42,537 nt of DNA from a virus, in UHGV virus genome UHGV-0420230; one strand, written 5' to 3'. A program made the position numbers and the translations under genes. The stretch's first letter is position 1; each line of letters starts with the position of its first letter. The notes beneath the pieces were generated by a model. That model was not told the origin of the DNA and did not search any database. It saw only the letters and a program-made list of their open reading frames with translations. This document shows positions 4,442 through 40,662 of the stretch, in pieces.

Positions 4442-5647
4442 ATGGCGGTTGATATTAAAGATGTGGAACAGGTCGCGCAGGAGCTGCAGCAGAAGTTTGA
4501 CGACTTCAAGGCAAAGAACGACAAGCGCGTGGATGCGATTGAGCAGGAAAAAGGCAAACTTGCCGGGCAGGTGGAAACCCTGAACGGGAAACTCAGCGAG
4601 CTGGAAAATCTCAAAAGCGATCTTGAAAAAGAGCTGCTTGAGCTGAAACGTCCGGCAGGTGGTGTGCAAAATAAACTGGCCACCGAGCATAAAGAAGCGT
4701 TTGTGGGCTTTCTGCGTAAAGGCCGTGAAGACGGTCTGCGCGATCTGGAGCGCAAGGCATTACAGGTGGGCACCGATGAAGACGGTGGCTATGCCGTGCC
4801 GGAAGCACTGGATCGCAACATTCTCACCCTGCTGAAAGATGAAGTGGTGATGCGCCAGGAAGCTACGGTGATCACTGTTGGCGGTTCCGACTACAAAAAA
4901 CTGGTGAATCTGGGCGGTACGGCTTCCGGATGGGTGGGGGAAACGGATACGCGATCCCAGACTGCCACCTCCAGACTGGAGCTGATTGAACCTCTCATGG
5001 GGGAAATTTACGGCAACCCGCAGGCTACCCAGAAAATGCTGGACGATGCCTTCTTCAACGTGGAGGCCTGGATCAACAGCGAGCTGGCAACTGAATTTGC
5101 CGAACAGGAAGAAATTGCCTTTACCTCAGGCGATGGTACCAAGAAGCCGAAAGGGTTCCTGGCGTATGAATCCACCGATGAAACCGATAAGGTCCGGGCG
5201 TTCGGCAAACTTCAGCATATTGTATCCGGCGAAGCGACGGGGGTGACCGCAGACGCCATTATCAAACTGATTTACACGCTGCGTAAGGCACACCGCACTG
5301 GCGCGAAGTTCATGATGAACAACAACAGCCTGTTTGCCATCCGTCTGCTGAAAGACAGCGAGGGTAACTATCTGTGGCGTCCGGGGCTGGAGCTGGGGCA
5401 GCCGTCCTCTCTGGCGGGTTACGGTATCGCTGAAAACGAACAGATGCCGGATATCGCCGCTGATGCGAAAGCCATTGCATTTGGTAACTTCAAACGGGGT
5501 TACACCATCGTTGACCGTATCGGCACCCGCATTCTGCGTGACCCGTACACCAATAAACCGTTTGTCGGTTTTTATACCACCAAGCGCACCGGCGGGATGC
5601 TGGTCGATTCGCAGGCCATCAAACTGCTGAAGATTGCAGCGGCGTAA
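4442..5647 (+). CDS. major capsid protein (HK97 family)
   Basis: 401 aa with N-terminal coiled-coil delta-domain-like region (EKGKLAGQVETLNGKLSELENLKSDLEKELLELKRP); AGGAG RBS. Confidence 0.85.
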   Translation: MAVDIKDVEQVAQELQQKFDDFKAKNDKRVDAIEQEKGKLAGQVETLNGKLSELENLKSDLEKELLELKRPAGGVQNKLATEHKEAFVGFLRKGREDGLRDLERKALQVGTDEDGGYAVPEALDRNILTLLKDEVVMRQEATVITVGGSDYKKLVNLGGTASGWVGETDTRSQTATSRLELIEPLMGEIYGNPQATQKMLDDAFFNVEAWINSELATEFAEQEEIAFTSGDGTKKPKGFLAYESTDETDKVRAFGKLQHIVSGEATGVTADAIIKLIYTLRKAHRTGAKFMMNNNSLFAIRLLKDSEGNYLWRPGLELGQPSSLAGYGIAENEQMPDIAADAKAIAFGNFKRGYTIVDRIGTRILRDPYTNKPFVGFYTTKRTGGMLVDSQAIKLLKIAAA

Positions 5648-21547: not shown

Positions 21548-21796
21548 TTAGTGAACAAACCACTCGTCAGCAGATTCCCAGGTATCTTTCAGAGTCTCCT
21601 GAACAAAAGTTTTTGCAGAATCCTTATCTGCGGTGCGTGTAACAGAAAGGCCATCATTGCTGGTGGCTTTTACTAACACCTCAACATCGTCATAACGCTT
21701 ACTGATGCGTCGGGTTAATTCTTCCTTTAACGCATCCACAGCACCGGTTGGCATTTTAGTCATTTTTTCTTTGGCTATGCAGATTTCAATACGCAT
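21548..21796 (-). CDS. dinI: DinI-like protein
   Basis: 82 aa, [11 protein letters not shown]...[11 protein letters not shown] strongly resembles E. coli DinI; GGAGG RBS. Confidence 0.85.
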
Positions 21797-21811: not shown

Positions 21812-21855
21812 CTGTGTTTGTATACAGTATTATTTTTAACTGTATGGATAAACAG
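21812..21855 (-). promoter_or_regulatory. two LexA (SOS) boxes overlapping the DinI-like promoter
   Basis: CTGT-N8-ACAG at 21812-21827 and 21840-21855; minus-strand TTGACA (plus 21857-21862), 17-bp spacer containing box 2, TAAAAA -10, box 1 over the start region. Confidence 0.7.
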
Positions 21856-29949: not shown

Positions 29950-29970
29950 TTTGTTCTTTAACCTCCAGAT
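29773..29970. repeat. 198-bp perfect direct repeat, copy 1
   Basis: Identical to 30162-30359 (offset 389 bp), verified base by base. Confidence 0.9.
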
Positions 29971-30338
29971 TTCCGCGCATCTAAAGGCGCATTCTCATTT
30001 GGTGTGAACTGAATAGTTGTGCTGATATTGATTAATGCCTCGACACTCAAGACTACGCACTCAGAGCAGATAGCAACTTCATCTTTTCCGCCTTTGGCGA
30101 TGATTTTTTTTGCCTGCAGCTCGTTTGCGCCACAAAACGAGCATGTGAAATAACGGTTCATTTCAGGGTCTGATGGAAATACTTCAGCCTGTTCCAAAGC
30201 ACGGCGTAAAGAGAATACAACTCCAGCCATAATCTGATGTTTCCCATTGGTCCAGCTATCGCCGCTCTGATCTACAGGAGCGGCTATGTCGTATGACCAA
30301 ACGACTTCACCACTATTGTTTAAAATCTGGACTTTCAT
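29958..30338 (-). CDS. protein with C-terminal ClpX-type C4 zinc finger
   Basis: FTCSFCGANELQAKKIIAKGGKDEVAICSECV resembles the ClpX N-terminal zinc-binding domain; GGAGG RBS; first gene after pL. Confidence 0.65.
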   Translation of the reverse strand: MKVQILNNSGEVVWSYDIAAPVDQSGDSWTNGKHQIMAGVVFSLRRALEQAEVFPSDPEMNRYFTCSFCGANELQAKKIIAKGGKDEVAICSECVVLSVEALINISTTIQFTPNENAPLDARKSGG

Positions 30339-30571: not shown

Positions 30572-31225
30572 TCAAAAATCCATTATTACTTGTTTGACAA
30601 GACCAACTATTCTGCAGTTCTCACCGCATTCAATAGTTTTATAGTTAGGATTTAGTGGGACGAGATACCTGTTCGGCCAGTCCTCAACAAATTTTTTGAG
30701 TGTCGCTTCTTGCCCACCATTGATATGGGCAACAACGATTTTTCCGTTAATACACTCTGTATCAATAATATCTGGCTCTACGATAACGATAGAACCTTCT
30801 GGTATCGATGGTGAGCCGAGGGGATTGGTCATTGAATCACCACGGACCCGTAGTGCAAATGCCATTTCTGATACAAGGGCGGTAGTATAAACCCACTCTT
30901 CAGCATCTTCTTTCCTGACACCAGGCTCCGTCATTGTCCATGAACCCGCCTGAACCCACGAGATGAGGGGGACTTTTTTAACTGCGAATATTTCAGGTTT
31001 TAGATTTATCTTTGGTTCAGGCGAGCCTTTTCCGCTAACAAGCCACAGAGGATCGCATTTAAGTGCGTTGGCTAGGGCTTGAAGGTTGGCTCCATTTGGT
31101 TGGTAGTCGTCCTTTTCCCATCCAGTAACCGTGACACGGTTCACACCAGTCAAATCAGCCAGTGCTTGTTGTGTCAGGTTCAGTTCTTTTCGCCTTTGGC
31201 GAATACGATCACTCATGTTCATCAT
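30572..31225 (-). CDS. CI-like repressor (HTH plus S24 LexA-like peptidase domain)
   Basis: N-terminal HTH (LTQQALADLTGVNRVTVTGWE); C-terminal RGDSM...K motif of self-cleaving repressors; divergent from the Cro-like gene. Confidence 0.85.
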   Translation of the reverse strand: MMNMSDRIRQRRKELNLTQQALADLTGVNRVTVTGWEKDDYQPNGANLQALANALKCDPLWLVSGKGSPEPKINLKPEIFAVKKVPLISWVQAGSWTMTEPGVRKEDAEEWVYTTALVSEMAFALRVRGDSMTNPLGSPSIPEGSIVIVEPDIIDTECINGKIVVAHINGGQEATLKKFVEDWPNRYLVPLNPNYKTIECGENCRIVGLVKQVIMDF

Positions 31226-31288
31226 GTAGGCAATCCTACCACATGCCCATGTAGGATTCTTGACATTGGTATGTTGGATATCCTACAT
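31224..31288 (+). promoter_or_regulatory. OR-type tripartite operator with rightward early promoter (pR-like)
   Basis: Three related palindromes at 31224-31241, 31248-31265 and 31271-31288 (the last exactly the reverse complement of OL1), spaced 23-24 bp; TTGACA 31260-31265. Confidence 0.6.
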
Positions 31289-31320
31289 TTCTGCTTAACG
31301 TAATTTAACGGGAGACAGAA

Positions 31321-31545: not shown

Positions 31546-32130
31546 GTGGGTAAAGAACCTGAATGGAAAGTTGATAAACAACCAGCATGGCTGGTGGCAG
31601 CAATACGAAGAACGATTGCTGATTTACCTCATGGCTATGAGGAAGCAGCAGAAATTCTTGGTTTGTATAAATCTGATGATATCACCCCAGCAAAAGATCA
31701 ATTGCATAACAGACTGCGTAGCGGTGGGGATCAAATTTTTCCACTTGAGTGGGCCATGGTTTTACAGGATGCCAGTGGTACCAGGCATGTAACAGATGCA
31801 ATAGCCCGTCGTAGTAATGGGGTGTTTGTGCCGCTGGTGGTCATTGATGACATTGACAATGGTGACATTAATCAGCGGCTGATGGAGTCAATAGAATGGA
31901 TTGGCAAGCATTCCCGGTACTTACGCAAGGCAACTGCTGATGGAGTTATTGACCAAGCTGAGCGTGAGCAAATCGAAGAGAACAGCTACCAAGTAATGGC
32001 GAAGTGGCAGGAGCATTTAACACTGTTATTTCGTGTTTTTTGTGCGCCGGAAAAGAGTAACGCCCGCGAGTGTGCAGCTCCGGGCGTCGTGGCGTCGATT
32101 GCTTCTGGTTGTGGAGAAACTAACGCATGA
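31546..32130 (+). CDS. YmfL/CII-like early regulatory protein (hypothetical)
   Basis: 194 aa following Cro; GTG start with GAGGAA RBS; assignment by position and size only. Confidence 0.5.
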
Positions 32131-32497: not shown

Positions 32498-33317
32498 TTC
32501 TGATAATTCTGAGCGTTATATTGTTCTGGCAGCGGCAAAATCCGTTGCCGGGATTGGCGTCCCGGAATTTTCCACAGCGCACAACCGCGCTAAAGCGGTT
32601 TTTTTGTGTGCAATGCACGGCTACATCCAGATTATGGTGGGCCGGGCAGGGGCATCGAAAGATGCGCCGGTATCTGTGGAAGCCGGTTACGCCAACCCTG
32701 TTCGGTTCACCACCAGTCAGATTGGCGTCTGTGGTGGTGATTGTCCAAATCATTCCACAGGGGCTGTCGTGATGACTACTATCCCAACCCTCGCACAACC
32801 TGAAATTACGGTTATCAACGGCCTGGCCGTTACTTCTTCCCTAGCTATTGCCGACTACTTCGCCAAGCGTCATGACGATGTACTGAAAAAGATCCGCACG
32901 CTTGAATGCTCAGCATCATTCACTGCCCGCAATTTTTCGGTGAGTGATTACACTGATTGCACAGGTCGCAAACTTCCTTGCTACCAAATCACACGCGACG
33001 GTTTTGCGTTTCTTGCTATGGGTTTCACGGGTAAACGTGCTGCCCAGTTCAAAGAGGCATACATCAATGCCTTTAACCAGATGGAGAAACAGCTTTCAAA
33101 GCCCTCTGTACCGAGCGACGTTGCACATAACGCCAGCGTTCTCTGTTCCTACATTTCATCAATTCATCAGGTCTGGTTGCAGCAGCTTTATCCCATGCTG
33201 GAAAAAGCTGAATCACCGCTGGCTGTAAGTCTGTATGACCGAATTAACGATGCGGCATTTCTTGCCCGTCTTATTCATTCGTCGCTGAACTCTTCAGAGG
33301 TAAGGGGGCGCAAATGA
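32475..33317 (+). CDS. Rha-family phage regulatory protein
   Basis: ITVINGLAVTSSLAIADYFAKRHDDVLKKIRTL...ITRDGFAFLAMGFTGKRAAQFKEAYINAFNQME resembles the Rha domain. Confidence 0.7.
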   Translation: MSKPVMIDSDNSERYIVLAAAKSVAGIGVPEFSTAHNRAKAVFLCAMHGYIQIMVGRAGASKDAPVSVEAGYANPVRFTTSQIGVCGGDCPNHSTGAVVMTTIPTLAQPEITVINGLAVTSSLAIADYFAKRHDDVLKKIRTLECSASFTARNFSVSDYTDCTGRKLPCYQITRDGFAFLAMGFTGKRAAQFKEAYINAFNQMEKQLSKPSVPSDVAHNASVLCSYISSIHQVWLQQLYPMLEKAESPLAVSLYDRINDAAFLARLIHSSLNSSEVRGRK

Positions 33318-34529: not shown

Positions 34530-35018
34530 ATGAGTCTTTTGAATGACGTTCAGAAATTCATTGAAGCCCATCCGGGCTGTACTTCCGGAGACATTGCGGA
34601 TGCTTTTGCAGGTTACTCACGGCAGCGCGTTCTGCAGTCAGCAAGCAAGTTACGTCAGAGTGGGCGTGTGGCTCACCGTTGTGAAGGAGATACACACAGA
34701 CATTTCCAGCGCCTGACTGAGAGAGCGCAGGATCCGGAACCACAACCAGTTCGTGAAACCAGACCTGTGCGCAATTTCTATGTCGGCACTAACGACCCGC
34801 GGGTGATTTTGTGCCTGACCCGCCAGGCGGAAGAACTGGAGTCCAGGGGCTTATACCGTCGTGCTGCAACGGTGTGGATGGCGGCATTCCGTGAAAGCCA
34901 CTCCCAGCCAGAACGAAACAATTTTCTGGCGCGTCGTGAGCGGTGCTTACGGAAAAGCAGCAAGCGCGCTGCATCGGGTGAAGAGTGGTATCTGTCAGGG
35001 AATTACGTGGGGGCTTAA
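34530..35018 (+). CDS. PerC-family-like transcriptional regulator
   Basis: ...AEELESRGLYRRAATVWMAAF...RRERC resembles PerC-type regulators; ATG 34530 follows GGGGGTGA. Confidence 0.55.
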   Translation: MSLLNDVQKFIEAHPGCTSGDIADAFAGYSRQRVLQSASKLRQSGRVAHRCEGDTHRHFQRLTERAQDPEPQPVRETRPVRNFYVGTNDPRVILCLTRQAEELESRGLYRRAATVWMAAFRESHSQPERNNFLARRERCLRKSSKRAASGEEWYLSGNYVGA

Positions 35019-35671
35019 TGAGTAATAAATATTGCCAGGCGCTGGTGGAACTGCGGAACAAACCAGCCCATGAACTGAAGGACGTGGGCGATCAGTGGCG
35101 CACGCCGGACAACATTTTCTGGGGAATTAACACCCTGTTTGGCCCGTTTGTTCTGGATCTGTTCACTGACGGTGATAACGCCAAATGTGCTGCGTATTAC
35201 ACGGCGGAAGACAACGCGCTGGCGCATGACTGGTCAGAACGTCTTGCGGAGCTTAAAGGTGCTGCCTTTGGTAATCCCCCATACAGCCGCGCCAGTCAGC
35301 ATGAGGGGCAATACATCACCGGCATGCGTTACATCATGAAGCATGCCAGTGCCATGCGTGATAAGGGCGGGCGCTATGTTTTCCTGATCAAAGCTGCCAC
35401 CAGCGAAGTGTGGTGGCCGGAAGATGCAGATCATATTGCTTTTATTCGCGGGCGTATTGGTTTTGAACTGCCTGTCTGGTTTATCCCGAAAGACGAGAAG
35501 CAGGTACCGACAGGCGCTTTCTTCGCTGGTGCTATTGCTGTTTTCGACAAGACCTGGAAGGGACCGGCAATCAGCTACATCGGGCGCGATGAACTTGAGG
35601 CATGTGGTGAGGCCTTTCTGGCGCAGGTTCGCCAGCAGGCGGAAAAACTGGTCAGGGAGATGGCGGCATGA
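35018..35671 (+). CDS. DNA N6-adenine methyltransferase (phage Dam-like)
   Basis: ...GAAFGNPPYSRA... motif; start overlaps the upstream stop (TAATG). Confidence 0.8.
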   Translation: MSNKYCQALVELRNKPAHELKDVGDQWRTPDNIFWGINTLFGPFVLDLFTDGDNAKCAAYYTAEDNALAHDWSERLAELKGAAFGNPPYSRASQHEGQYITGMRYIMKHASAMRDKGGRYVFLIKAATSEVWWPEDADHIAFIRGRIGFELPVWFIPKDEKQVPTGAFFAGAIAVFDKTWKGPAISYIGRDELEACGEAFLAQVRQQAEKLVREMAA

Positions 35672-35994
35672 CGACGTTAACTCAATGCCAGCAGCAGGTG
35701 CTGGATATGCTGATTTCTTACCAGAAAGAACGTGGCTTCCCGCCAACCAATCAGGAGGTGGCAACCATGCTGGGATACCGTTCGGTGAATGCAGCGGTGG
35801 AGCATCTTCGCGCACTGGAGAAAAAAGGCGTCATCACGATAAAGCGTGGCGTGGCCCGGGGGATAACGCTTCATACCGCGATGAAGGACGACGACAGCGA
35901 GGCGGTCGGGATTATCCGCTCACTGCTTGCCGGTGAGGAAAACGCCAGGCTGCGTGCAGCCCACTGGTTACATGAGAGGGGCCTGAAAGTATGA
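35668..35994 (+). CDS. LexA-like DNA-binding domain protein (no peptidase domain)
   Basis: LTQCQQQVLDMLISYQKERGFPPTNQEVATMLGYRSVNAAVEHLRALEKKGVITIKRGVARGITL aligns closely with the E. coli LexA N-terminal domain; ends at 108 aa. Confidence 0.75.
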   Translation: MTTLTQCQQQVLDMLISYQKERGFPPTNQEVATMLGYRSVNAAVEHLRALEKKGVITIKRGVARGITLHTAMKDDDSEAVGIIRSLLAGEENARLRAAHWLHERGLKV

Positions 35995-36380
35995 AGCTGA
36001 TCCTGCCTTTTCCGCCCAGCGTGAACACGTACTGGCGACACCCCAACAAAGGGGCGTTTGCTGGTAAGAGCCTGATAAGCGCGGCGGGGCGAAAATTCCA
36101 GAGCGCGGCGTGCGCTGCAATAGTTGAGCAGTTACGTCGTCTGCCGAAACCAACGTCGGCACCTGCTTCAGTGGAGATCGTGTTGTTTCCTCCGGATAAC
36201 CGGATCCGCGATCTGGACAACTATAACAAGGCGCTGTTTGACGCCCTGACCCACGCGGGGGTGTGGGAAGACGACAGTCAGGTGAAAAGAATGCTGGTGG
36301 AGTGGGGACCGGTTATCCCGGAAGGGAAGGTCGAGATCACTATCAGTAAGTACGAGAAAACGGCGGGTGCAGCTGCCTGA
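35991..36380 (+). CDS. rusA: RusA-family Holliday junction resolvase
   Basis: 129 aa, ...DLDNYNKALFDALTHAGVWEDDSQV... typical RusA motif. Confidence 0.85.
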   Translation: MKLILPFPPSVNTYWRHPNKGAFAGKSLISAAGRKFQSAACAAIVEQLRRLPKPTSAPASVEIVLFPPDNRIRDLDNYNKALFDALTHAGVWEDDSQVKRMLVEWGPVIPEGKVEITISKYEKTAGAAA

Positions 36381-37210: not shown

Positions 37211-38206
37211 GTGACCGTGAGAGCACTACTGACCCCTGAAATAGCCCCGCGTATGGGGATTGTATTGTTCAGACCAGGTTCAGAGCTGATGCCCCTGTTT
37301 ATGCAGGGGCGTGTCCTGCTGGAGCCTGAGCCGGAACGTTATTCATCTTTCGCCAGTGGTGCCGTTCCGGCGGCATCACAACCGCTGGCGGATGATCCTG
37401 CCGTTAGGGCCGTGTTCCGCAATGAGGCAGTGATCCGTCGTGCTGGTGGCGTGGAATGTCTTGAAAGCTGGTTACTTCGTGAAAAAGGCTGCCAGTGGCC
37501 TCATTCCGACTGGCACAGCGAGAACATGACCACAATGCGACACGCGCCGGGCGCGATCCGTCTGTGCTGGCACTGCGATAACCAGCTGCGCGATCAGTTC
37601 ACGGAACGGCTGGAATCAATGGCAACGGATAACTGTGCCCGCTGGGTGTTGTCTGTAGTCCGTCTGGATCTCGGTTTTGATGATAACCATGCCGTGACAA
37701 TGCCGGAACTGTGCTGGTGGCTGATTCGTAATGACCTGGCGGATGCCTTACCGGAAAGTGCAGCCCGTAAGGCACTGAGATTACCGAAGCCTGTTGTGCC
37801 GTCTGTCACCCGGGAAAGTGACCTTGTGCCTTCGGTTCCTGCCACCAGCATCATCCAGGATAAGGCGAAAAAGGTGCTGGCGCTGAAAGTGGATCCGGAG
37901 TCGCCGGAGTCTTTTATGTTACGCCCAAAACGCCGCCGCTGGGTTAATGAAAAGTACACGCGCTGGGTTAAGACACAGCCGTGTGCATGTTGTGGAAAGC
38001 CTGCTGATGATCCCCACCACCTGATAGGCCACGGTCAGGGTGGAATGGGTACAAAAGCGCATGACCTCTTTGTGTTGCCTTTGTGCAGAAAGCATCACGA
38101 CGAGCTGCATGCGGATACCGTGGCATTTGAAGAGAAGTATGGCTCTCAGCTGGAGCTGATATTTCGTTTTATCGATCGTGCGCTGGCAATTGGCGTATTG
38201 GCGTAA
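37211..38206 (+). CDS. DUF968-domain protein (HNH-like C-terminus)
   Basis: C-terminal ...QPCACCGKPADDPHHLIGHGQGGMGTKAHDLFVLPLCRKHHDELH; GTG start. Confidence 0.6.
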   Translation: MTVRALLTPEIAPRMGIVLFRPGSELMPLFMQGRVLLEPEPERYSSFASGAVPAASQPLADDPAVRAVFRNEAVIRRAGGVECLESWLLREKGCQWPHSDWHSENMTTMRHAPGAIRLCWHCDNQLRDQFTERLESMATDNCARWVLSVVRLDLGFDDNHAVTMPELCWWLIRNDLADALPESAARKALRLPKPVVPSVTRESDLVPSVPATSIIQDKAKKVLALKVDPESPESFMLRPKRRRWVNEKYTRWVKTQPCACCGKPADDPHHLIGHGQGGMGTKAHDLFVLPLCRKHHDELHADTVAFEEKYGSQLELIFRFIDRALAIGVLA

Positions 38207-38219
38207 GTGGAGAACGAGC

Positions 38220-38972
38220 ATGAACCTTGAAGCCTTACCAAAATATTACTCCCCAAAATCTCCAAAATTGAGCGATGACGCACCGGCGACAGGCTCAGGT
38301 GGTTTAACGATTACGGATGTGATGGCTGCGCAGGGGATGGTGCAGTCGAAAGCACCGCTTGGGTTTGCCTTATTCCTGGCAAAAGTTGGTGTTCAGGATC
38401 CTCAATTTGCGATTGAAGGTCTGCTCAATTACGCGATGGCACTGGATAACCCGACATTGAACAAATTGAGTGAAGAAACCCGGTTACAGATCATCCCTTA
38501 CCTTGTGAATTTTGCCTTTGCTGATTATTCCAGGTCTGCGGCAAGTAAGGCTCGCTGTGAGCATTGTGCTGGTACTGGATTTCATAATGTATTGCGCGAA
38601 GTGGTGAAACACTCCAGAAGCGGGGAATCTGTTATCAAGGAAGAGTGGGTGAAGGAACTATGTCAGCATTGTCATGGTAAGGGAGAAGTCAGCACAGCGT
38701 GCAGAGGGTGTAAGGGTAAAGGTATTGTCCTGGATGAAAAAAGGACCCGGCTTCATGGCACGCCTGTTTATAAGATTTGTGGGCGTTGCAATGGAAACCG
38801 GTTTAGCCGTTTACCAACCACACTGGCGCGGCATCATGTCCAGAAGCTGGTACCAGACCTGACGGATTATCAGTGGTACAAAGGATATGCAGATGTCATT
38901 GATAAACTGGTTACAAAGTGCTGGCAGGAAGAAGCATATGCAGAGATACAATTGAGAAAGGTGACAAGATAA
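38220..38972 (+). CDS. Q-like late antiterminator
   Basis: Zinc-binding CEHCAGTG...CQHCHGKGE...CRGCKGKG; immediately upstream of a late promoter plus terminator; ATG 38220 preferred over the GTG at 38178. Confidence 0.7.
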   Translation: MNLEALPKYYSPKSPKLSDDAPATGSGGLTITDVMAAQGMVQSKAPLGFALFLAKVGVQDPQFAIEGLLNYAMALDNPTLNKLSEETRLQIIPYLVNFAFADYSRSAASKARCEHCAGTGFHNVLREVVKHSRSGESVIKEEWVKELCQHCHGKGEVSTACRGCKGKGIVLDEKRTRLHGTPVYKICGRCNGNRFSRLPTTLARHHVQKLVPDLTDYQWYKGYADVIDKLVTKCWQEEAYAEIQLRKVTR

Positions 38973-39428: not shown

Positions 39429-39578
39429 TGGCGGTTTCCTGCTGTGAAAATGGGCGGCTGGTGGGTGTTGGTAGCACCTGCCAGCCATTCGCTCATGCTT
39501 ACTGGTCACAAGCGAACCACGGCCCACTGCTTTAGCGCAAAAGCAGAGTGAGCCTACCAGAGTTACGCTTACTGATCC

Positions 39579-40631
39579 ATGAAAAATACTGTAAAAATAA
39601 ACAGTGTTGATTTAATCAACGCTGATTGCCTGCATTTTATTCAGTCCCTGCCTGATGATTCCATTGACCTGATTGTTACCGATCCGCCTTACTTCAAGGT
39701 GAAACCTAACGGTTGGGACAATCAGTGGAAAGGGGATGAAGATTACCTTAAGTGGCTGGACCACTGTCTGGCCCAGTTCTGGCGGGTGTTGAAACCTGCC
39801 GGAAGCCTTTACCTGTTCTGTGGGCATCGCCTAGCATCTGATATTGAGATCATGATGCGTGAACGTTTCAACGTGCTTAACCATATCATCTGGGCGAAGC
39901 CGTCCGGACGTTGGAATGGGTGTAATAAAGAAAGTCTGCGCGCATATTTTCCTGCCACAGAGCGCGTTCTGTTTGCTGAACATTACCAGGGGCCATATCG
40001 CGGCAAAAGTGACGGCTATGCGGCAAAAGAAAGGGAACTCAAACAGCACATAATGGCACCGCTGATATCGTATTTCAGGGATGCTCGTGCCGAACTGGGT
40101 ATAACGGCAAAACAAATTGCCGAAGCCACAGGTAAGAAAAATATGGTTTCCCACTGGTTTGGTGCCAGTCAGTGGCAGTTGCCGAATGAGGCTGACTATC
40201 GGAAGTTACAGGCACTGTTTTCCCGTATAGCGGCAGAGAAGTTTCAGGAACAACAACTGGAACAACCACACCACCAGCTGGTGGCATCTTATGATTCACT
40301 GAATCGTAAATATTCTGAATTGCTGGATGAGTTTAAATCTCTCCGGCGCTATTTCTCCGTATCAGTCTCCGTGCCTTATACCGATGTCTGGATGCATAAA
40401 CCCGTTCAGTTCTACCCGGGGAAACATCCGTGTGAGAAACCGGCGGATATGCTCAGGCAAATAATCAATGCCAGTAGTCGACCAGGTGATCTGGTTGCTG
40501 ATTTTTTTATGGGATCCGGTTCCACAATAAAAGCAGCAATGGCGCTGGGGCGTCGGGCCTTAGGTGTTGAGCTTGAGTCAGAGCGGTTTAATCAGACAGT
40601 GAAAGAGATAAACGAGCTGGTGGGGAAATAA
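39579..40631 (+). CDS. DNA methyltransferase (N6/N4 type, DPPY motif), late-expressed orphan
   Basis: IVTDPPYF motif near the N-terminus and C-terminal AdoMet-binding region (DFFMGSGST); no adjacent restriction gene. Confidence 0.8.
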   Translation: MKNTVKINSVDLINADCLHFIQSLPDDSIDLIVTDPPYFKVKPNGWDNQWKGDEDYLKWLDHCLAQFWRVLKPAGSLYLFCGHRLASDIEIMMRERFNVLNHIIWAKPSGRWNGCNKESLRAYFPATERVLFAEHYQGPYRGKSDGYAAKERELKQHIMAPLISYFRDARAELGITAKQIAEATGKKNMVSHWFGASQWQLPNEADYRKLQALFSRIAAEKFQEQQLEQPHHQLVASYDSLNRKYSELLDEFKSLRRYFSVSVSVPYTDVWMHKPVQFYPGKHPCEKPADMLRQIINASSRPGDLVADFFMGSGSTIKAAMALGRRALGVELESERFNQTVKEINELVGK

Positions 40632-40635
40632 TCTG

Positions 40636-40662
40636 GTGGCCACGTTGCGTGGCCTTTTTATT
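40636..40662 (+). terminator. rho-independent terminator
   Basis: Hairpin GGCCACG-TTG-CGTGGCC followed by a T-run. Confidence 0.65.

Follow-up and report, generated by a model that had tools for sequence, protein, structure and literature searches.

A protease-less LexA-like protein of a lambdoid phage is a candidate uncleavable binder of SOS operators

The UHGV virus genome UHGV-0420230, a stretch of 42,537 nucleotides that is called the window throughout, is a complete SfIV/mEp460-like temperate phage (terminase, tail, integrase, immunity, replication, nin region, Q, and lysis genes). Between positions 35668 and 35994 it carries a gene for a 108-residue LexA-like protein in which the DNA-binding domain of LexA is present and the protease domain is missing. 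Sequence and comparative evidence make an uncleavable LexA mimic acting on SOS boxes the leading hypothesis for this protein. The hypothesis leads because the protein has a LexA domain without the protease, the residues that read CTGT are kept, SOS boxes occur in the phage itself, and relatives of the gene lie in operons headed by SOS boxes. It draws mainly on the layout of those related operons, which run from an SOS box through DinI and/or RecA and a small open reading frame (ORF) to the LexA-like gene. That the protein is a noncleavable binder that re-imposes repression at SOS operators is possible, and from the sequences we place it slightly short of an even chance.

A LexA-type winged helix without a protease domain

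The gene and the two parts of its product are as follows (pN/pS, ratio of nonsynonymous to synonymous polymorphism; AF2, AlphaFold 2):

35668-35994, plus strand: LexA-like gene (PHROG 362), from the ORF list, Pfam, NCBIfam, and PHROG matches, and pN/pS; stop codon at 35992-35994.
35668-35874, plus strand: residues 1-69, LexA-type winged helix-turn-helix (PF01726, AF2/Foldseek, pN/pS of 0.008).
35875-35991, plus strand: residues 70-108, linker and two-helix hairpin (AF2, alignments, pN/pS of 0.19).

The ORF starts with ATG and its 108-residue product is present exactly as the original prediction had described it. All 65 positions of the Pfam model LexA_DNA_bind (PF01726) were matched on residues 1 to 65 (E = 2.9e-19; score of 69 bits, cut-off 23.7), BLASTP against Escherichia coli LexA gave 39 identities in 90 positions (43%; E = 1e-21), and the top sequence matches in the PDB were all LexA. 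The AF2 model, with a mean predicted local distance difference test score (pLDDT) of 77.5, comprised helices at residues 6-22, 28-35, and 40-52 and strands at 56-59 and 65-68, and Foldseek superposed it on the LexA-DNA complex 3JSO with a root-mean-square deviation (rmsd) of 1.3 Å over 68 residues. Foldseek identity to LexA was 50-51% over 67-68 aligned winged-helix residues, which agrees with the earlier estimate, made by eye, that about half of some 65 residues were identical.

The same prediction had the protein lacking the Ser-Lys peptidase, and Pfam indeed returned no Peptidase_S24 match for it, whereas the phage's own cI-like repressor does match S24. The lexA equivalog model of NCBIfam, TIGR00498, scored 70.6 bits, below its cut-off of 110.95, and only positions 1 to 91 of 203 were matched. 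Both the S24 domain and the equivalog cut-off therefore fail, and by its sequence the protein is not a canonical LexA.

A review that sets out the domain layout of LexA and the LexA-DNA structure assigns the reading of CTGT mainly to S39, N41, A42, and E45 (PMC11442139), and a second list of LexA DNA contacts comprises S39, N41, A42, E44, and E45 (PMC13416735). The recognition helix of the LexA-like protein reads S39-V-N41-A42-A-V44-E45-H-L-R, and its wing is R64-G65-I66. When the DNA-contacting residues were checked by pairwise alignment, as had been proposed, S39, N41, A42, E45, and the RGI wing proved identical to those of E. coli LexA, and LexA E44 was replaced by V44. Across the wider family, S39 and the wing R64-G65-I66 are invariant and N41 is at least 90% conserved. 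According to Zhang and colleagues (2010), the wings of two LexA domains reportedly meet in one minor groove and so set the 8-bp spacing; were this the case, a pair of phage subunits would favor that spacing as well.

Compared with E. coli LexA (PDB 3JSO and 1LEA; TIGR00498), the LexA-like protein thus shares S39, N41, A42, E45, and the RGI wing, with homology extending into the hinge. It differs in having V44 for E44, in being a phage gene of the nin operon, in scoring below the equivalog cut-off, and in carrying a hairpin in place of the S24 Ser/Lys autoprotease-dimerization domain (Ser119/Lys156 dyad in LexA). Because that domain is absent, inactivation by activated RecA (RecA*) and pairing with LexA should be impossible for the phage protein.

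A conserved two-helix module at the C terminus

Beyond a low-confidence linker (residues 71-75), the AF2 model contains a helical hairpin (helices 75-87 and 93-102; pLDDT of about 88), and the sequence places hydrophobic stripes on its helices (A79, V80, I82, I83, L86, and L87; A93, L95, A97, A98, W100, and L101). This tail had been described as unrelated, which does not hold. The close homologues, from Escherichia, Salmonella, Citrobacter, and Hafnia (66-96% identity), were all 106-108 residues long and kept the C-terminal 40 residues. Distant homologues, obtained by a profile search of 1.84 billion representative proteins, were mostly 105-135 and up to 165 residues long and matched the profile as far as position ~100 with 32-48% identity; in their tails A97 and L101 were invariant, and the pattern EAVxxxRALLAxxxxARxRAxxxL recurred. 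A set of 84 loci yielded 48 distinct alleles, for which pN/pS came to 0.056 over the whole gene, 0.008 in residues 1-70, and 0.19 in residues 71-108. Purifying selection acts on the tail, which is a conserved two-helix module, and the gene is functional and no truncated pseudogene.

A decaying, functionless fragment of a captured lexA would be short and would score below the equivalog cut-off, as this protein does (70.6 against 110.95), but the idea is scarcely credible. It is already contradicted by the selection analysis (pN/pS of 0.056 over the 48 alleles), and the constant gene length in thousands of genomes, the conservation of the tail down to 32% identity, the proper ribosome-binding site, and the coupled translation all speak against it.

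LexA dimerizes through its C-terminal domain, and the hairpin is probably a replacement dimerizer for that domain. The next Foldseek neighbors after LexA were the BlaI/MecI-like Rv1846c, MecI, MntR, and Rrf2-family proteins, in which a winged helix-turn-helix is combined with a C-terminal helical dimerizer; these neighbors fit a dimerizing role for the hairpin and do not prove it. The BlaI/MecI, MntR/DtxR, and Rrf2 repressors share with the LexA-like protein a winged helix-turn-helix at the N terminus, followed by a short C-terminal helical module, but there is no sequence relationship, and the Foldseek matches (E of 0.009-0.05, high rmsd) reflect architecture only.

The representative library also held proteins of 147-222 residues with two tandem LexA DNA-binding domains and no protease domain (P0128, P0136, P0137, P0155, and P0180), which, from their sequences, appear to be “covalent dimers,” another route round the LexA C-terminal domain. 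Since both the helical-dimerizer architectures and the tandem proteins exist, protease-less LexA domains have found other ways to pair.

A different role for the tail, as a decoy in SOS proteolysis that would serve as pseudo-substrate or inhibitor of RecA*-stimulated S24 proteases, is barely probable. The BLASTP and TIGR00498 alignments do run through residue ~90, including an AGE motif, and BLASTP sets A88-G89 opposite the LexA cleavage site A84-G85. Family members do not conserve the Ala-Gly pair, however: it is AN or VG in close relatives and absent from the type-B members described below, and the segment is predicted to be helical, with no extended loop. In addition, RecA* engages the C-terminal domain of LexA, which the LexA-like protein does not have.

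SOS boxes in the phage

A pattern search for CTGT-N8-ACAG gave three matches in the window, against 0.6-0.7 expected. The boxes and the genes beside them are as follows:

21812-21827 and 21840-21855, no strand assigned: two SOS boxes, CTGTGTTTGTATACAG and CTGTATGGATAAACAG, 16-59 bp upstream of the DinI-like gene; candidate targets (pattern search).
21548-21796, minus strand: DinI-like gene, 82 residues (PF06183, E = 1.1e-19), adjoining the integrase gene; LexA-box-controlled moron.
39589-39604 (20-bp span, 39587-39606), no strand assigned: third SOS box, TACTGTAAAAATAAACAGTG, in codons 4-9 of the methyltransferase gene; candidate target (pattern search).
39579-40631, plus strand: N6/N4 DNA methyltransferase moron (PF01555, E = 2.2e-42), between Q and the holin gene.

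The pair in front of the DinI-like gene had been noted in the original prediction and was recovered here. The phage dinI box has the 20-bp form TGCTGTGTTTGTATACAGTA, and the module of dinI with two boxes also occurs in mEp460 and in Stx phage 1720a-02. The methyltransferase gene, whose SOS box is a strong one, ends before a terminator-like hairpin at 40638-40654 (terminator scan), and gene and box have been kept together in mEp460 and in distant loci (L085, L101, and L127; methyltransferases 75-87% identical); judged by these sequences, the gene appears to be a moron under SOS control that sits within the late operon. The spacers of all three boxes are AT-rich, and each box departs from the 20-bp consensus at 4-5 positions; by the same count, the recA box does so at 4.

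No other spacing or orientation of CTGT and ACAG was clearly enriched in the window, where the inverted arrangements ACAG-N8-CTGT and ACAG-N13-CTGT occurred 4 times each against about 0.5 expected. Across 136 related loci, N8 alone stood out, with 42 distinct sequences compared with mostly 1-10 at other spacings and 17 at N13.

Further boxes were found in related phages. A 168-bp spacer in SfIV (L001; 32588-32755), situated after a rusA pseudogene, contains the near-perfect SOS box ATACTGTATTTATGAACAGTAT (32639-32660), about 100 bp upstream of a KilA-N-domain gene. This box was present in 12 of 80 IMG/VR loci, and the window has neither spacer nor box; the sequence of the SfIV variant suggests a LexA-controlled KilA-N gene, perhaps antirepressor-like. 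Another SOS box, AATACTGTATGTAAAAACAGTATT, strong and palindromic, is found at 31972-31987 in mEp460 (L002) and at 39533-39548 in 1720a-02 (L003), within the cI-like HTH_3-plus-S24 repressor gene, in the linker between the two domains of the repressor. About 25 of the 80 related loci have it, and the window, which is of another immunity type, does not; it may act as a roadblock on cI transcription or mark an internal or antisense promoter.

SOS-headed operons of related LexA-like genes

Distant relatives were collected with P0135, a 42%-identical member, as the query, which returned 34 IMG/VR viral contigs (L099-L132), and a genome scan with a single protein added loci on the chromosomes of Klebsiella pneumoniae, Klebsiella sp., and Enterobacter sp. 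(L133-L135). These three were the only true relatives in the scan; the other matches were host lexA genes, mostly from Vibrionaceae. Type B comprises 31 loci (L099-L125 and L132 from IMG/VR, and L133-L135), whose proteins are 40-47% identical to the window protein.

A perfect CTGT-N8-ACAG heads the operon that contains the LexA-like gene in all 31 type-B loci. The distance from box to gene was about 530-700 bp in 29 loci and about 1500-1600 bp in the RecA-carrying L123 and L124; in L115, where RecA and DinI are both present, no box is closer to the LexA-like gene than about 1800 bp upstream. Two promoters were read in detail: in L111, a terminator is followed by TTGACC-17-TATACT with its -10 element overlapping the box TACTGTTTATTTATACAGTA, and in L099, the SOS box starts directly after the -10 element. 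The L111 promoter is followed by DinI, a 101-residue PHROG 1813 ORF, the LexA-like gene (4935-5327), a 67-residue PHROG 1212 ORF, and DUF968, and L124 has two overlapping boxes followed by a full phage RecA, a PHROG 1813 ORF, and the LexA-like gene. Most type-B operons contain DinI or RecA; those with neither (L099-L103, L109, L110, L113, and L135) have the box promoter directly before the PHROG 1813 ORF and the LexA-like gene. Because the type-B loci show at least 12 different box sequences and their proteins fall into three sub-lineages that are 47-63% identical, the SOS box has been kept through considerable divergence.

RecA, found in L123 and L115 as well, spans 3538-4683 in L124 (361 residues; Pfam RecA, E = 2.6e-130).

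The LexA-like gene of every type-B operon is directly preceded by a small ORF of 77-101 residues (PHROG 1813, no Pfam family), located as follows in the three operons above:

L111: 4589-4894.
L099: 4713-4961.
L124: 4725-4958.

The window contains no PHROG 1813 homologue. The ORF was considered as an S24 remnant of LexA and rejected, with BLASTP against LexA giving E = 0.12 in the wrong region and Pfam giving nothing at E of ≤10.

Type A has the order Dam/PerC, LexA-like, and RusA and comprises the window type, L084-L098 (about 50% identity), and L126-L131 (43-46%). The window type, type A', and type B all match PHROG 362, tail included. These distributions leave room for a portable “SOS reset” toolkit of enterobacterial prophages, made up of DinI, sometimes RecA, and an uncleavable LexA paralogue, and placed in an SOS-box operon in Klebsiella and Enterobacter and wired into the lytic program in the type found in E. 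coli, Shigella, and Salmonella; this broader proposal is tentative and on the unlikely side.

Coupling to the nin operon and expected expression

The features around the window gene are as follows:

35654-35659, plus strand: Shine-Dalgarno sequence AGGGAG, read from the sequence, 8 nt before the LexA-like ATG and within the 3' end of the Dam gene.
34985-35671, plus strand: phage N6-adenine methyltransferase (Dam) gene (PF05869, E = 2.4e-45), adjoining the LexA-like gene upstream.
35991-36380, plus strand: RusA Holliday-junction resolvase gene (PF05866), adjoining the LexA-like gene downstream.
31260-31289, plus strand: PR-like sigma-70 promoter TTGACA-18-TACATT (consensus scan only).
30572-31225, minus strand: cI-like repressor gene with HTH_3 and Peptidase_S24 domains (Pfam).

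The Dam stop codon (35669-35671) overlaps the start codon of the LexA-like gene as ATGA, and the LexA-like stop codon overlaps the rusA start (35991) in the same way, the LexA-like gene ending 4 nt into rusA. The LexA-like gene is thus translationally coupled to Dam and RusA in the rightward nin operon. The local order is PerC-like (34524), Dam (34985), LexA-like (35668), RusA (35991), KilA-N (36400), DUF968/HNH (37211), and Q (38178), with all of these genes closely packed on the plus strand.

From the promoter at 31260-31289 through Q (38178-38972), every gene is on the plus strand and tightly spaced, and the rightward early transcript extending into the nin region probably starts at this promoter; the consensus scan found no better-matching promoter nearer the LexA-like gene. 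By analogy with lambda, the S24 domain of the phage repressor suggests RecA*-dependent induction. Because the repressor is of this HTH_3-plus-S24 type, the LexA-like protein is expected to be delayed-early, appearing after the loss of the prophage repressor.

The coupling is also an argument for an accessory DNA-binding factor that would serve Dam and RusA, for example in recombination or replication, and have no role in SOS transcription. RusA follows the gene in the type-A relatives as well (43-50% identity; L084-L098 and L126-L131). Such a role is nevertheless improbable: the type-B neighborhoods lack RusA and Dam, yet have the SOS box, DinI, and RecA; rusA is a pseudogene in SfIV, where the LexA-like gene is intact; and nin regions are mosaic, which makes adjacency weak evidence of a common function.

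In the early left operon, a 126-residue protein (29958-30338, minus strand) has a ClpX-type C4 zinc finger (PF06689, E = 4.6e-10), which is of note since ClpXP clears the LexA N-terminal fragment.

Proposed action at SOS operators and competing explanations

As an uncleavable SOS-operator binder, the LexA-like protein would be made only once the S24-type repressor of the prophage has been inactivated, as a delayed-early product together with Q. The hairpin would pair two subunits, and the dimer would bind CTGT-N8-ACAG through S39, N41, A42, E45, and the RGI wing, at the two phage dinI boxes, the methyltransferase box, and host boxes. Lacking the cleavage domain, it should be beyond inactivation by RecA*, and LexA-controlled promoters of phage and host would be re-closed while RecA* is active and destruction of host LexA is under way. 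This would turn off those SOS functions from which the developing phage gains nothing or suffers harm. In the type-B prophages of Klebsiella and Enterobacter, the protein would close its own SOS-induced operon, a self-limiting negative feedback alongside DinI.

The cleaved N-terminal domain of LexA has an affinity lowered 10- to 1000-fold, and its removal by ClpXP is needed for full SOS induction (PMC11442139). Because ClpXP must degrade this fragment, a LexA DNA-binding domain without protease is a working, if weak, repressor in vivo, and because the free domain is still active, a stable, self-dimerizing version should repress SOS operators. The LexA fragment 1-84 of SOS-induced cells likewise is a DNA-binding domain without the C-terminal domain that represses until ClpXP removes it (PMC11442139), but it is transient, whereas the phage protein adds a conserved helical module and ends in ...GLKV. 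Among the systems compared, the LexA-like protein would work most like LexA's own N-terminal domain. Neher and colleagues (2003) are said to have found that the ClpX-recognized C terminus of the LexA fragment ends in VAA, and the LexA-like protein does not have the VAA C terminus that ClpX recognizes.

What the phage might gain is a matter of speculation. SOS toxins could be silenced, such as TisB, which is reported to keep prophages from being induced (PMC12626290), as could colicin lysis genes, error-prone polymerases, and rival prophages with LexA-controlled antirepressors (PMC3121763; PMC8044961).

Several observations weigh against this account. The window gene and all of its type-A relatives lack an SOS box of their own, and the strongest SOS association is borrowed from relatives that are only 40-47% identical. 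Host LexA alone fully explains the SOS boxes in these phages, and the phage protein is not required. Dimerization through the hairpin comes from a monomer model only (predicted template modeling score of 0.51). Position 44 is never Glu in the family (V, F, or A), and A42 and E45 differ in some members, with E45 replaced by L in L111 and both positions changed in P0085; with E44 replaced family-wide and A42 or E45 altered in some members, operator specificity may have drifted. In the literature searched, no experimental study of a lambdoid PHROG 362 protein (binding, oligomerization, or expression) was found.

The same substitutions would suit a LexA-derived transcription factor with an operator of its own that controls phage promoters as activator or repressor, and many phage proteins of 65-150 residues are nothing but a LexA DNA-binding domain. 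There is one characterized, published precedent for a phage-encoded truncated LexA homologue, which is the nearest analogue studied, and it counts against repression of SOS operators: gp6 of the Bacillus tectivirus GIL01 recognizes GaCACAnnTGTGaC and switches on the late promoter P3 (PMC6182141). Like the LexA-like protein, gp6 is the product of an early phage gene and has a LexA DNA-binding domain without a protease domain (PMC6182141). It differs in being only 66 residues long with no C-terminal hairpin, in its remodeled recognition helix (K38), and in activating transcription at GaCACAnnTGTGaC, and it represents an independent lineage from Gram-positive LexA.

Membership of the window protein in the gp6 family was rejected, with no BLASTP alignment at E of ≤100 and recognition helices that read SVNAAVEH in the window protein and SHKTAHRY in gp6; the former, of the pattern SxNAAxEH, is LexA-like. 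The gp6-type palindrome is likewise absent, the window containing no match to GNCACANNTGTGNC even with one mismatch allowed, and no alternative spacing or other arrangement of CTGT and ACAG is clearly enriched. Moreover, the phage already has the Q antiterminator for its late genes, and the SOS-box-headed operons of the relatives point to an SOS circuit. A factor retargeted to its own operator is therefore an unlikely, though serious, alternative to the binding of SOS operators.

It had also been proposed that the protein might heterodimerize poorly with LexA and so derepress. A poison heterodimer was rejected, as the protein lacks the domain through which LexA dimerizes. More broadly, the shared DNA-reading residues would allow a dominant-negative competitor at SOS half-sites or with LexA, and we hold this to be very improbable. 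There is no C-terminal domain for a heterodimer with LexA, a protein sitting on a promoter-overlapping operator represses rather than derepresses, and the N-terminal domain in isolation, whose binding is 10- to 1000-fold weaker than that of dimeric LexA, would not displace the dimer (PMC11442139).

Mutagenesis, antibiotic tolerance, the release of toxins and colicins, and the induction of other prophages are all driven by the SOS response; an uncleavable binder, if real, would for that reason be a widespread, unmeasured modifier of these processes. Prophages in a large share of E. coli, Shigella, Salmonella, Citrobacter, and Klebsiella strains could then cut short or dampen the host SOS response at a time of their own. 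If SOS boxes are indeed bound, some 40% of E. coli strains carry a LexA paralogue able to override RecA-dependent derepression, which could affect SOS mutagenesis, persistence toxins (TisB), colicin release, and the cross-induction of neighboring antirepressor-dependent prophages.

Distribution and naming of the gene

Protease-less phage LexA homologues are a known and well-populated kind, and this gene is already sensibly annotated. What is new here are the conserved tail module, the retained CTGT-reading residues, and, in prophages of Klebsiella and Enterobacter, the SOS-box operons shared with DinI and RecA. Depositors have used the names “LexA DNA binding domain protein,” “LexA-like protein,” and “transcriptional repressor,” and the Prokaryotic Genome Annotation Pipeline uses “LexA family transcriptional regulator”; some depositors have wrongly chosen “SOS-response repressor and protease LexA.” Residues 1-108 of the protein align with the full PHROG 362 profile (positions 1-106 of 106; E = 1.4e-59). 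The protein is a member of this lambdoid family (SfIV gp43, mEp460 gp46, SfV, and Stx2c phages), whose copies are near-identical to it with no difference to report, and the family carries a name only at the level of annotation (“transcriptional repressor”). The LexA DNA-binding domain alone also makes up PHROGs 24920, 3502, and 29443 and many BFVD models (phage proteins of 65-150 residues).

These routine LexA-family annotations, and the frequency of the gene, are at odds with the suggestion that it does not belong to the standard lambdoid features. At ≥95% nucleotide identity, the 327-nt gene was found in 2233 of 5426 complete E. coli genomes, in up to 4 copies per genome, and its length was constant across thousands of genomes. 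Fifty phage records contain it, among them those of Shigella phage SfIV, mEp460, Ayreon, 1720a-02, and many Stx2c-converting phages, and the exact protein sequence occurred on 449 contigs.

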